Assembly (NCBI RefSeq): GCF_045037415.1
Contig: NZ_CP173438.1
Direction: 5' to 3' (one strand)
DNA from: Escherichia coli
GTDB lineage: Bacteria; Pseudomonadota; Gammaproteobacteria; Enterobacterales; Enterobacteriaceae
Length of the DNA stretch: 64,000 nt
Part shown: positions 14,698 to 28,815 of the stretch, piece after piece
Numbering within the stretch: position 1 is the stretch's first letter
How the letters are laid out: each line of letters opens with the position of its first letter
The notes under the pieces: model-generated
Seen by the model: the letters and a program-made list of their open reading frames with translations, nothing else
Database searches by the model: none
What the model was told of the DNA's origin: nothing
Program-made: the position numbers and the translations under genes

Positions 14698-14773
14698 TGG
14701 CTCCTCTGACTGGACTCGAACCAGTGACATACGGATTAACAGTCCGCCGTTCTACCGACTGAACTACAGAGGA
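14698..14773 (-). tRNA. asnT: tRNA-Asn (GTT anticodon)
   Basis: 76-nt exact reverse complement of the E. coli tRNA-Asn sequence as recalled, ending CCA; assignment to the asnT copy is inferred from adjacent mtfA. Confidence 0.9.
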
Positions 14774-19748: not shown

Positions 19749-19958
19749 TTACGGCGCTGTTTTTAATCCTGCCGGGATTTCGTTATTGTCCATGTGAATA
19801 ACTTTATCGACCGGATAACAGTTGCCGGGAATTTTCTGTTCCGCTGCGGCAGCCATGCATTCTTTCATTGAGTTGTACATGCCGGTGATTGCATCAAGCG
19901 ACTCACCAGTATTGAGATATACAGTCAGAATGAGTATGAATAATGTGTTCATCGCCAC
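19749..19958 (-). CDS. Small hypothetical protein with N-terminal hydrophobic segment (AT-rich)
   Basis: 69-aa ORF, low GC, hydrophobic N-terminus LFILILTVYL; no family assigned. Confidence 0.35.
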   Translation of the reverse strand: MAMNTLFILILTVYLNTGESLDAITGMYNSMKECMAAAAEQKIPGNCYPVDKVIHMDNNEIPAGLKTAP

Positions 19959-20137
19959 TCTCCGAAAATACCGAGTTTAAGAAGGGCAATTCTGGAGAGT
20001 ATGGAATTGTCATTCAGCAGGTAGGGTTCATATTTTCTCATATTGATTGCATCCTCGGTGAAATCCCTGTTACTGAGCAGAACACCAATATTAAAGCACC
20101 CGTCAGACGTATTAACGTTTGGTAGTGACGTTTCCAT
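19949..20137 (-). CDS. Small hypothetical protein (AT-rich)
   Basis: 62-aa ORF in AT-rich stretch between exonuclease and rha; no family assigned. Confidence 0.3.
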   Translation of the reverse strand: METSLPNVNTSDGCFNIGVLLSNRDFTEDAINMRKYEPYLLNDNSILSRIALLKLGIFGEWR

Positions 20138-20147
20138 TATCGCGTCC

Positions 20148-20705
20148 TCAACAATGAATTTTTAGCAATTGCTCCACAGTCATATTTTTAATTGCGCTCC
20201 GGTTTACAAGAGTCCATCCTTGTTTCTCCAGATAAAACCGGAAGGTATCCAGGGTGCAGACCATTGCGCCGTCAGGAACGGTTTCAGTGAATTTGATATT
20301 GCCGTGTTCGTCGAGACGGATAACCAGGGTGCGTCCGTCCCCGTGAATCATTTTGTCGGGAGACGGGGCGTTATTCTGGCGCAGTTCTTCCTCCATGCGA
20401 TCGAACTCAGCGATGTAGGCTTCTTTGAAAGTTGCGGCTTTTTTACCTGTGAACCCCATCACCAGGAAAACGAAGCCGTTTTTGGTGATTTGGTACATTG
20501 GGAGTTTGCGCCCGGTTGAGTCGGTGTATTCGCTCGACACAAAATTGTGCTCAGTGAATTTTGCTGAACAGTCCAGATTGCGAATTTTATCCAACACTCG
20601 TTCGTGGCGTTTGCCAAAGAACTCGGCGATCGCAACAGACGTAGTGACAGCGCGACCATTTTCGATGGTTACGTCAGGGTGAGAAAGGGTAAGGATAGTA
20701 GCCAT
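20148..20705 (-). CDS. Rha-family phage regulatory protein (antirepressor-like)
   Basis: Rha-type N-terminal motif VTTSVAIAEFFGKRHERVLDKIRNL; start set at the internal ATG preceded by GGAGG (20705) rather than the track start at 21002. Confidence 0.6.
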   Translation of the reverse strand: MATILTLSHPDVTIENGRAVTTSVAIAEFFGKRHERVLDKIRNLDCSAKFTEHNFVSSEYTDSTGRKLPMYQITKNGFVFLVMGFTGKKAATFKEAYIAEFDRMEEELRQNNAPSPDKMIHGDGRTLVIRLDEHGNIKFTETVPDGAMVCTLDTFRFYLEKQGWTLVNRSAIKNMTVEQLLKIHC

Positions 20706-20873
20706 GATGGCAGCCTCCGCGATGAATTTGATTAACTCACCACCGAGGTTTTCCACGACCATAAGGGTGGTGAGACGTACAGGGGTGGAAATACCGGTCA
20801 TCACGGAACCCGGCCAGCCTTGCGGCTGCCCTGCACGCCCCACCATAATGCGAATGTGGCTGTGCTTAACGCA

Positions 20874-20898
20874 TAAAAAAACCGCCTGAGCGCGGTTA
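20874..20898 (-). terminator. Rho-independent terminator (minus strand) upstream of rha
   Basis: On minus strand AACCGC-GCTCAG-GCGGTT followed by TTTTTTTAT. Confidence 0.45.
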
Positions 20899-21540
20899 TG
20901 CGCCGTGAATGATTTCGGGTTTCCACGCCCGGCACCCGTTTTATGAGGTGCAGGTGCACTATAATTCCACCCGTTCTGGTTTTCAATAGCTACATTCAAC
21001 ATTTTCTCTACCTTTCATCACCGAAGTGAACTTTGTTGATGCGGTGCCTGGTGCCTCCAGGTGACGTTAACCAGTTAACAATTAACGCCGGATACAGAGA
21101 ATCCACCCATAACACTGTTTTTGGTTTTAACTGTTCCGCGTGCGCTTAGCCGCATTCACCGCATCACAAAATTCACTTTAAAAAGGGCGGCAGAGCAGTC
21201 ACGGAGTAGAACTGATACCGCCAAAAGTCACCAGAAAATTGATAACAGAGGGCGTTGCAGCGGGGTTGTCACTTAAGCGTATGGTCAACCTGACAACCCG
21301 GTGTCCTCAACGGGGGAAGGAATAACCCCGCCATACTTACCGCCGCGCCATTTCGCGGATTGCCACAACCGGAAGCGCACGGTCGACGAAAATTTAACGA
21401 CTACCTACAGAGAGACGAACTTCGCCGTGCGCTTTCGCGTTATGCCCTGACTTTTCAGGGATATATCCTTTTCAGTAAACTGTCAGTGCCGGATTCTTAT
21501 CCGTGTCCGGCGCACGCACTCTACCTCACCTGTGAATAAA

Positions 21541-25032: not shown

Positions 25033-25803
25033 ATGGAAACCGTATTTGACGCACTGAAAGCAATGGGAAAAGCCACATCGGTAGAACTGGCCGCGCGACT
25101 TGATATCAGTCGTGAAGAGGTTCTCAACGAGCTGTGGGAACTCAAAAGAAATGGCGTCGTTGATAAAACTGGTCACACCTGGTTTCTGGCTGGCGAAGGT
25201 GAATCCCGGGTAACCGAAGAGCGGCCAGTAAAATCTGAAGCACAGGATATGCTGACCGGGGAGGTCGAACAAAAAGTTACCGCAGACATGATGATTGAGT
25301 TTATCGGTCAGGATGGTGCTAAAACGTGTGAGGAACTGGCGGGTAAGTTCGGCGTCAGTACTCGCAAGGTTGCCTCCACGCTGGCGGTGGTAACCGCAAC
25401 GGGGCGGCTGGCACGCGTTAATCAGAACGGTAAATTTCGTTACTGCATGCCGGGCGATAATTTACCAGCAGAGCCGAAAGCCGCGCTGGTAACGGAAAGT
25501 GATGGTAAGGCCTTTCCTCAGCCAGCAGGTGCTGCGTTACCAGTCCGGGAAGCCGCAACACAGGAAGAAATTAAAACAGAAACTGTGGCGGACATTGTGC
25601 AGCCGTTGCCATCGTTTACCGAAACGCAAGCAGATGAGCTGATTTTTCCGTCCCTTCGCAGGGCAAACCTGGCGCTGCGCAGGGCGAAAAGTGATGTTCA
25701 GAAGTGGGAGCGAGTCTGCGCCGCGCTGCGGGAGCTGAACAAGCACCAGGATATTGTTCGACAGATTGTCGATTCATCCGGTCGTATTGTGTCGGAAAAG
25801 TGA
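25033..25803 (+). CDS. Hypothetical phage protein with N-terminal winged-helix-like segment
   Basis: ATG 25033 with GGAGGA 8 nt upstream; track start 25015 is an alternative TTG. Confidence 0.45.
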
Positions 25804-28553: not shown

Positions 28554-28755
28554 ATACAGCGAACGCCATTGGTTTAGTTGGATATTTACTGTGCCGGACA
28601 AAAACGGTTTGCGGGGAAATCTTAGTTAAGTAGAATAACTGCGGGTGCTTGAGGCTATCTGTCTCAGGCATGAACACCAAAAGGCAGATAGAGAAAAGCC
28701 CCAGTTAACATTACGCGTCCTGCAAGACGCTTAACATTAATCTGAGGCCATATCT

Positions 28756-28815
28756 ATGCGACACATAGAGATTAGCCTCTTACGGACCGAAAGGTCAAGG
28801 AGAAGCAGGCTATGA
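28756..28815 (+). other. Short leader ORF (19 codons) ending in TGA overlapping the hok-like start; mok-like coupling frame
   Basis: ATG 28756, stop TGA 28813-28815 overlapping ATG 28812. Confidence 0.3.

Follow-up and report, generated by a model that had tools for sequence, protein, structure and literature searches.

What does a prophage keep in the 835 nucleotides (nt) upstream of rha, in an early-left operon that is otherwise tightly packed? We analysed this segment within a 64-kb stretch of Escherichia coli DNA (contig NZ_CP173438.1; the window, to which all coordinates refer), a lambdoid prophage matched at 100% identity in strain Ecol_AZ146. The segment runs on the minus strand from the stop of a 128-amino-acid (aa) gene (21541) to the rha ATG (20705); its RNA elements, rha and the dicB homologue, like the promoter and start signals described below, are all on that strand. 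An earlier note made from the sequence alone had called the segment highly structured, and had proposed a regulatory RNA or riboregulator with a decayed gene as the alternative.

The impression of structure is borne out by the minimum free energy (MFE), which is −324 kcal/mol for the segment, whereas 20 dinucleotide-shuffled sequences gave −275 ± 7 (z −6.75). A scan with Rfam covariance models at their curated gathering thresholds returned three families above threshold, DicF, isrK and C4, and two matches below, an STnc100-like element (21173–21032) and a c4-a1b1 motif that overlaps IsrK. With three families above threshold and pairings that covary across related phages, the proposed RNA control of an antirepressor-like gene is upheld, but the segment is a chain of separate, previously described RNA elements and not one novel riboregulator. 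We consider it probable that it makes up the non-coding middle of an early-left operon of the Qin-like, dicBF type, into which a P1-immI-type antisense unit controlling an antirepressor-like gene has been inserted. By analogy with the homologous systems, these RNAs most likely keep that gene off in the lysogen.

Public annotation misses all of them. The RefSeq record (NZ_CP018991 742508–743475, equivalent to window 20148–21115) annotates none of the RNAs and places across them a 284-aa open reading frame (ORF) labelled Rha protein (21002–20148, overlapping the segment at 20706–21002) and a partial "DicB" pseudogene at 21115–21032, inside a structured spacer. The locus is a new, uncharacterised member of known RNA families whose mechanism was worked out in P1 and Gifsy-1, with three variant features: the absence of an icd gene, a leader frame fused to rha, and insertion between dicF and dicB.

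The IsrK–C4 unit upstream of rha

The unit is headed by a sigma-70 promoter at 20958–20986 (TTGAAA, 17 nt, TATAGT; 10 of 12 consensus positions). Among close relatives, for which 80 loci encoding Rha relatives yielded 29 distinct versions of 21000–20690, both hexamers are invariant (29/29). The predicted transcription start, ~20951, is the 5′ end of IsrK, a small RNA (sRNA) at 20875–20951 that scores 67.7 bits against RF01394 (gathering threshold 50); the overlapping c4-a1b1 match falls short of its threshold (25.7 versus 46.7). IsrK has three hairpins, the last of which is an intrinsic terminator (20897–20875; AACCGCGCTCAGGCGG followed by T7), the rho-independent terminator that the earlier note had located to within 1 nt. 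Two C4 target copies lie within IsrK, a1 (20926–20920) in the loop of hairpin 2 and b1 (20912–20903) after that hairpin, the site names being those of the annotated P1 map.

The C4 antisense RNA follows at 20763–20850, where the full RF01695 model (positions 1–87) matches at 81.9 bits (gathering threshold 45); homology with the P1 c4 annotation places the mature molecule at ~20844–20766. It folds into a long outer stem around two hairpins, with the recognition elements b′ (20808–20798) in the loop of hairpin 2 and a′ (20791–20785) in the single-stranded junction. The rha leader (20714–20762) consists in turn of a2 (20756–20750), a strand (20744–20736) complementary to the 3′ strand of C4 (20774–20766), b2 (20725–20715) and the Shine–Dalgarno (SD) sequence GGAGG (20718–20714), with the rha ATG 8 nt further on. 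In the window, a′ and a2 form 7 contiguous pairs, and b′ and b2 form 11, covering the first three bases of GGAGG. The regulated gene, rha (20148–20705), encodes a 185-aa Rha-family, antirepressor-like protein (Pfam Phage_pRha, 1.9e-30; TIGR02681, 110 bits; PHROG Rha and anti-repressor families). Its ATG is conserved and its SD nearly so in alignments A1 and A3, and the Rha domain begins 20 codons past this ATG.

Most of the variation among the 29 versions falls in six short patches, which change in concert. The a sites (a1, a′ and a2) occur in four matched forms, and the b sites (b1, b′ and b2, which abuts the SD) in at least eight. In 12 of 12 more distant phages (ST64B, the Stx1a and Stx2c phages, phiP27, Hafnia yong2, a Yersinia phage, Citrobacter Shae_phiSM, P88, TL-2011b, JLK-2012, PhiR12_1 and VT2phi_272), IsrK is followed by C4, both above gathering threshold. 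Judged from sequence, promoter-like −35 and −10 elements precede IsrK in 13 distant modules, those of the 12 phages and that of P1, where the promoter is P1c4.

Covariation was scored in 24 diverse modules including that of P1. Pairing partners were sought as contiguous complementarity limited to the a′ and b′ windows, a search that replaced RNAduplex on whole C4 and whole targets, which had returned long, uninformative duplexes. In nearly all modules, a′ is perfectly complementary over 7 nt to both a1 and a2, and at least ten sequence types occur; b′ and b2 pair over 8–13 nt in most modules, extending into the GAGG of the SD; and in 20 of the 24 no other leader matches as well as the cognate one. 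IsrK a1/b1 and C4 a′/b′ are paired in 92.7% of cells, with 15 of 16 pairs compensatory (slid controls 28–51%). The C4 fold is paired in 99.5% of cells with 11 compensatory pairs (slid controls 36–48%), its outer stem reaching 100% in all 24 modules, and the IsrK fold is paired in 95.5% with 7 compensatory pairs. MFE folding also predicts a leader hairpin that would sequester the SD; it is 82.8% paired and shows zero compensatory changes. Across homologous prophages, where the earlier note had looked for a check of its RNA reading, the paired regions are thus both conserved and covarying.

This covariation identifies Salmonella IsrK as the a1/b1 partner of a P1-type C4 RNA, and so joins the work on P1 immI with that on Gifsy-1 IsrK. 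The a types, at least ten in number, and the many b types are mixed and matched into an RNA barcode, which could predict antirepressor cross-regulation among co-resident prophages.

The same data bear on two interleaved helices that the earlier note had drawn immediately 5′ of the rha ribosome-binding site (RBS) as a possible H-type pseudoknot. Both exist and are 100% complementary, each displaced by 1 nt (20736–20744 with 20766–20774, 9 nt; 20750–20756 with 20785–20791, 7 nt). The TTTCCAC/GTGGAAA helix is the P1-type a′/a2 antisense–target pairing, which in the established model forms in trans after C4 processing. The CTCACCACC/GGTGGTGAG helix links the 3′ strand of the C4 outer stem to the leader between a2 and b2; it is invariant in close relatives and 95.8% paired in the 24 modules, with 4 of 9 pairs compensatory (slid controls 33–61%). 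Because it is incompatible with the C4 outer stem, this helix is a conserved pairing that the unprocessed transcript can adopt instead. When it is forced in the read-through RNA, the resulting conformer lies 5.5 kcal/mol above the MFE, and IsrK pairs in cis with the a′/b′ region, an arrangement that resembles "structure A" of the Gifsy-1 study (PMC4825925).

The segment might on these grounds be a single cis-acting riboregulator, in which the pseudoknot would gate rha translation without a trans-acting RNA: both helices are conserved, a′/a2 covaries, the order of the helices is interleaved in the unprocessed transcript, and the energy cost of the forced conformer is only the 5.5 kcal/mol given above. 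We regard this as quite improbable, however. The a′ element pairs equally well with a1, and the main contact at the RBS is b2, which the earlier note had missed and which pairs with a hairpin loop 80 nt away. Going by the annotation of the P1 record, the homologous P1 RNA is a processed molecule of 77 nt that works in trans, and the forced helix has to compete with an outer stem that is paired in every module.

Proposed control of rha in the light of P1 and Gifsy-1

The annotated map of P1 is collinear with the window in the order promoter, a1, b1, c4, a2, b2/SD, icd, ant. The immI region of P1 and P7 (c4, icd, ant1/ant2) shares with the present unit a constitutive promoter, a1, b1, a terminator-like hairpin, C4, a2, a b2 that overlaps the SD, and a regulated gene. 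The C4 fold is also the same, with a′ at the junction and b′ in the loop of hairpin 2, as is the strand between a2 and b2 that is complementary to the C4 3′ strand. In P1 it is the C4 and c4-a1b1 models that pass their thresholds, and an overlapping isrK match (35.1 bits) remains below. In P1 an icd ORF sits behind b2 and ant is coupled to it, whereas here b2 and the SD belong to rha, whose Rha-family product is only marginally similar to Ant1. P1 is a plasmid prophage, whereas the present unit lies in a lambdoid early-left operon where no C1 operator is expected; and the a and b specificities of P1 are entirely unlike those of the window.

The isrK-orf45-anrP locus of Gifsy-1 (Hershko-Shalev et al. 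2016; PMC4825925) likewise has an IsrK that starts from a promoter of its own and ends in a leaky terminator. Downstream come a processed RNA of ~80 nt (STnc1160 in Salmonella), which corresponds to C4; a leader ORF whose AUG lies in the 5′ strand of the C4 stem; and, behind this ORF, a Rha/antirepressor-like gene. There, too, IsrK pairs with the a′/b′ region. The start of orf45 is the counterpart of an AUG at 20846 in the window. The orf45 stop overlaps the anrP AUG (AUGA), whereas here the leader frame enters rha without a stop, a configuration that the Gifsy-1 authors noted in Shigella dysenteriae (PMC4825925). The Gifsy-1 locus adjoins antQ, whereas the present one lies between dicF and dicB.

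Family membership, the folds, the covarying complementary sites and a b2 that overlaps the SD are directly shown. The mechanism proposed here adds to these what homologues suggest about processing, translational repression, de-repression by IsrK and the antirepressor activity of Rha (P1 record annotation; review text PMC8198154; Gifsy-1 study PMC4825925). The conserved promoter would fire at ~20951, and most transcripts would end at the terminator to give the 77-nt IsrK, while read-through transcripts would carry C4, to be excised as a stable RNA of ~79 nt. C4 would then pair through a′ in its junction and b′ in its loop with a2 and b2 of the leader; because b2 covers the first bases of the SD, rha would remain untranslated while C4 is present. 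The duplicate sites a1 and b1 of IsrK would compete for C4, in cis or in trans, and so relieve the block, and the Rha-family product would act on the prophage switch as AnrP does in Gifsy-1.

Gifsy-1 offers supporting results. IsrK supplied in trans raised anrP translation more than 100-fold, and the pairs G28–C162 and G31–C159 were proven by compensatory mutation (PMC4825925). These positions would correspond to a1:a′ here, within 3 nt. As for maturation, RNase P reportedly makes the C4 cut in P1, in work by Hartmann et al. in 1995. Alignment to the annotated 5′ end of P1 c4 predicts an RNase P cut in the window between U20845 and G20844. Because this predicted cut falls inside the leader-frame AUG at 20846, C4 maturation and leader translation would be mutually exclusive on any one transcript.

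Several points weigh against antisense control of rha on the P1 pattern. In the window, b1 and b′ pair only with a 1-nt bulge. In Gifsy-1, constitutive STnc1160 failed to prevent the toxicity of IsrK (PMC4825925), so C4 can be called only a putative repressor in IsrK-type loci. The locus holds no separate icd-like ORF between b2 and the antirepressor gene, and the P1 chain, in which a block of icd translation leads to Rho termination and loss of ant, is therefore not transferable step by step. The similarity of Rha to P1 Ant1 is marginal (pairwise E 0.01), for which reason we do not claim homology of the two, and antirepressor activity is assumed. Finally, a frame that stays open through the module in most variants hints at translation that a simple antisense model does not explain.

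The open frame across the unit

The statement of the earlier note that the segment holds no convincing ORF applies to the part upstream of 21003, where the ORF listing has none longer than 59 aa, but not to the remainder, which the 284-aa ORF (21002–20148) enters. Its first ~100 codons overlie the promoter, IsrK, the terminator and C4. The ORF opens at an ATG (21002–21000) that, with its RBS, forms a dicB-type start (21000–21019), and homology with K-12 dicB stops at this ATG.

From this former dicB start the frame is open into rha in 27 of the 29 variants, and from the AUG at 20846, in the 5′ strand of the C4 stem, it is in phase with the rha ATG without an intervening stop in 28; a 3-nt indel at a2 leaves the phase unchanged. 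Five other lineages (ST64B, Stx1a, Stx2c, phiP27 and Hafnia yong2) keep the frame open as well. In four phage loci the frame extends a further 70 to more than 100 codons upstream (2–647 in L084, which is ST64B and exceeds 100 codons; 38–644 in L085; 98–644 in L086; 188–638 in L088), and its translation looks unlike that of a protein. The frame is closed in P1 and in seven other phages (P88, Citrobacter Shae, Yersinia 39, TL-2011b, JLK-2012, PhiR12_1 and VT2phi272). The variants L014 (~1915) and L037 (~1825) carry single-base insertions, one beside a′ of C4 and the other in the T-run of the IsrK terminator; both break the long frame, and they may be sequencing errors or natural frameshifts.

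The ORF could therefore be read as a real Ash–Rha fusion protein, with the RNA elements embedded in coding sequence or the RNA reading secondary. RefSeq annotates it as a protein, it begins exactly at the dicB-type start where K-12 homology ends, and its first 104 aa match Pfam PF10554 (Phage_ASH, 3.5e-16). The translation of 20691–21002 (minus strand) also matches the N-termini of four PHROG families (995, 821, 6928 and 3960), and the frame is kept open in the variants and lineages listed above. We nevertheless judge a fusion protein unlikely. Downstream of the AUG at 20846 the variable columns are spread evenly over the codon positions (21/22/23), so the amino-acid sequence is not under purifying selection past that point, and RNA pairing accounts for all of the variation. 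The ORF contains a conserved promoter and an intrinsic terminator, 1-nt insertions interrupt it in two variants, it is closed in P1 and the seven other phages, and NCBIfam offers no family match; an NCBIfam search of the small ORFs of the segment returned nothing except the Rha domain.

The N-terminal PHROG matches coincide with the RNA elements and were not accepted as protein evidence. Records of other phages name the translated RNA module "Ash family protein". "Ash" (PF10554) and several PHROG N-termini appear to be largely translations of the RNA module, and the families may be artefacts of a conserved RNA. In satellite phage P4, CI RNA causes premature transcription termination, not SD occlusion. 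By description, P4 CI RNA with seqA and seqC is like the present unit in being a processed antisense RNA between upstream and downstream copies of its target (PMC4825925), and Pfam "Ash", named for P4 ash, matches the translation of the module here.

In the long frame there may be selection against stop codons, that is, for the transit of ribosomes. A tentative extension of the antisense model is that the read-through transcript is not a simple antisense target but a bistable switch sensitive to translation; we hold this to be possible, though doubtful. The conserved pairing of the C4 3′ strand with the leader is incompatible with the outer stem of C4, and the predicted RNase P cut would fall inside the AUG at 20846, so each transcript would either mature into C4 or be translated. 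Ribosomes on a derepressed early-left transcript could melt both the terminator and the C4 fold, and the long form of Rha would then be made independently of the C4 lock.

The DicF half and the surrounding operon

Upstream of the unit, window 21534–21027 matches the ydfC-dicF-dicB interval of the K-12 Qin prophage at 93% identity, a stretch that takes in DicF, its precursor and the spacer to the dicB RBS. Here an 855-bp IsrK–C4–rha unit is inserted exactly at the dicB start codon, and the upstream genes differ, a 128-aa gene standing in place of ydfB and ydfC. DicF itself (21185–21236) matches the full RF00039 model at 71.5 bits (gathering threshold 48), differs from K-12 DicF by two substitutions, and has its own terminator hairpin with a T-run at 21184–21180; the spacer comes next.

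In its structured, untranslated 5′ part (21237–21540), the DicF precursor shares 93% identity with the stretch of K-12 Qin between ydfC and dicF. K-12 DicF is released from a polycistronic dicB-operon transcript, where RNase III generates the 5′ end of the 190-nt form and RNase E the form of 53 nt (PMC10448788). The point 190 nt upstream of the DicF terminator, ~21370 in the window, coincides with a 13-bp helix (21437–21425 with 21382–21370), which by analogy is likely to be the RNase III site that yields the 190-nt species. The genomic context of DicF is conserved with Qin, and the helix lies at the expected cut; DicF may be processed from a long precursor at this locus too.

The inverted repeats to which the earlier note had drawn attention are present in the precursor as CCCTGAAAAGTCAGGG at 21460–21445 and GGGTTGTCA...TGACAACCC at 21299–21263. 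In the RNAalifold consensus of the precursor just 2 pairs changed on both sides, and structure there rests mainly on invariance and on the swapping of hairpins; we accordingly dropped a defined fold for it. The hairpin at 21460–21445 was dropped as a functional element because two of its pairs are lost in the commonest, K-12-type variant.

Between DicF and the dicB-type RBS lies a structured spacer (21032–21173) similar to the STnc100/PasD sRNAs (RF02076; bioRxiv 10.64898/2026.05.13.724894), with which it shares a partial covariance-model match (model positions 22–154 only) and a long closing stem, here an outer stem of 15 nt (21171–21157 with 21046–21032). Unlike members of the family, the spacer here (38 bits) and its copy in K-12 (34.4 bits) are both below the gathering threshold of 47. 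Invariant cores frame a hypervariable insert that differs in length, and in one relative (L050) a hairpin shows compensatory changes.

Could this half of the segment be one or more decayed protein-coding genes? RefSeq marks a partial "DicB" pseudogene at 21115–21032, and a 35-aa ORF at the same position matches the first 30 positions of PHROG 24763. That ORF, however, falls in the hypervariable insert region, which relatives flank with invariant RNA-like cores, and K-12 has the same spacer with a full dicB downstream. In related loci (alignment A2), invariant cores are broken where whole hairpins have been exchanged and where inserts of differing lengths occur, a pattern incompatible with coding sequence, which speaks against a decayed gene in the DicF half. 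The indels of many lengths and swapped hairpins in relatives likewise mark the segment upstream of 21003 as non-coding. Pseudogene remnants, the alternative raised in the earlier note, are thus extremely improbable: upstream of 21003 there is no ORF above 59 aa, and the small-ORF translations found no NCBIfam match.

In A2 columns 226–250 (window ~21250–21222), relatives retain the DicF terminator scaffold while very different sequences replace the DicF 5′ seed, which suggests, from sequence comparison, a set of DicF-like sRNAs with swapped target specificity. The P1 region annotated "dicF-like" (23740–23834 in L083) matches the structured core upstream of DicF (window 21358–21261) and not DicF, and P1 also carries a sub-threshold STnc100-like element at 25081–25200.

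The order along the operon is dicF, the IsrK–C4–rha unit and the dicB homologue, the unit being placed between dicF and dicB. The contiguous DicF–IsrK–C4–rha arrangement is found in 307 of 5,426 complete E. coli genomes. Directly after rha comes the dicB homologue (19949–20137), labelled dicB in RefSeq and 64% identical to K-12 DicB. Elsewhere in the window, a sok antitoxin RNA (RF01794) at 28643–28814 on the plus strand scores 106.7 bits against a threshold of 59, which indicates a hok/sok-type toxin–antitoxin module in the same prophage region, and a tRNA-Asn (GTT) gene at 14698–14773 on the minus strand may mark the prophage attachment site or be a phage-borne tRNA.

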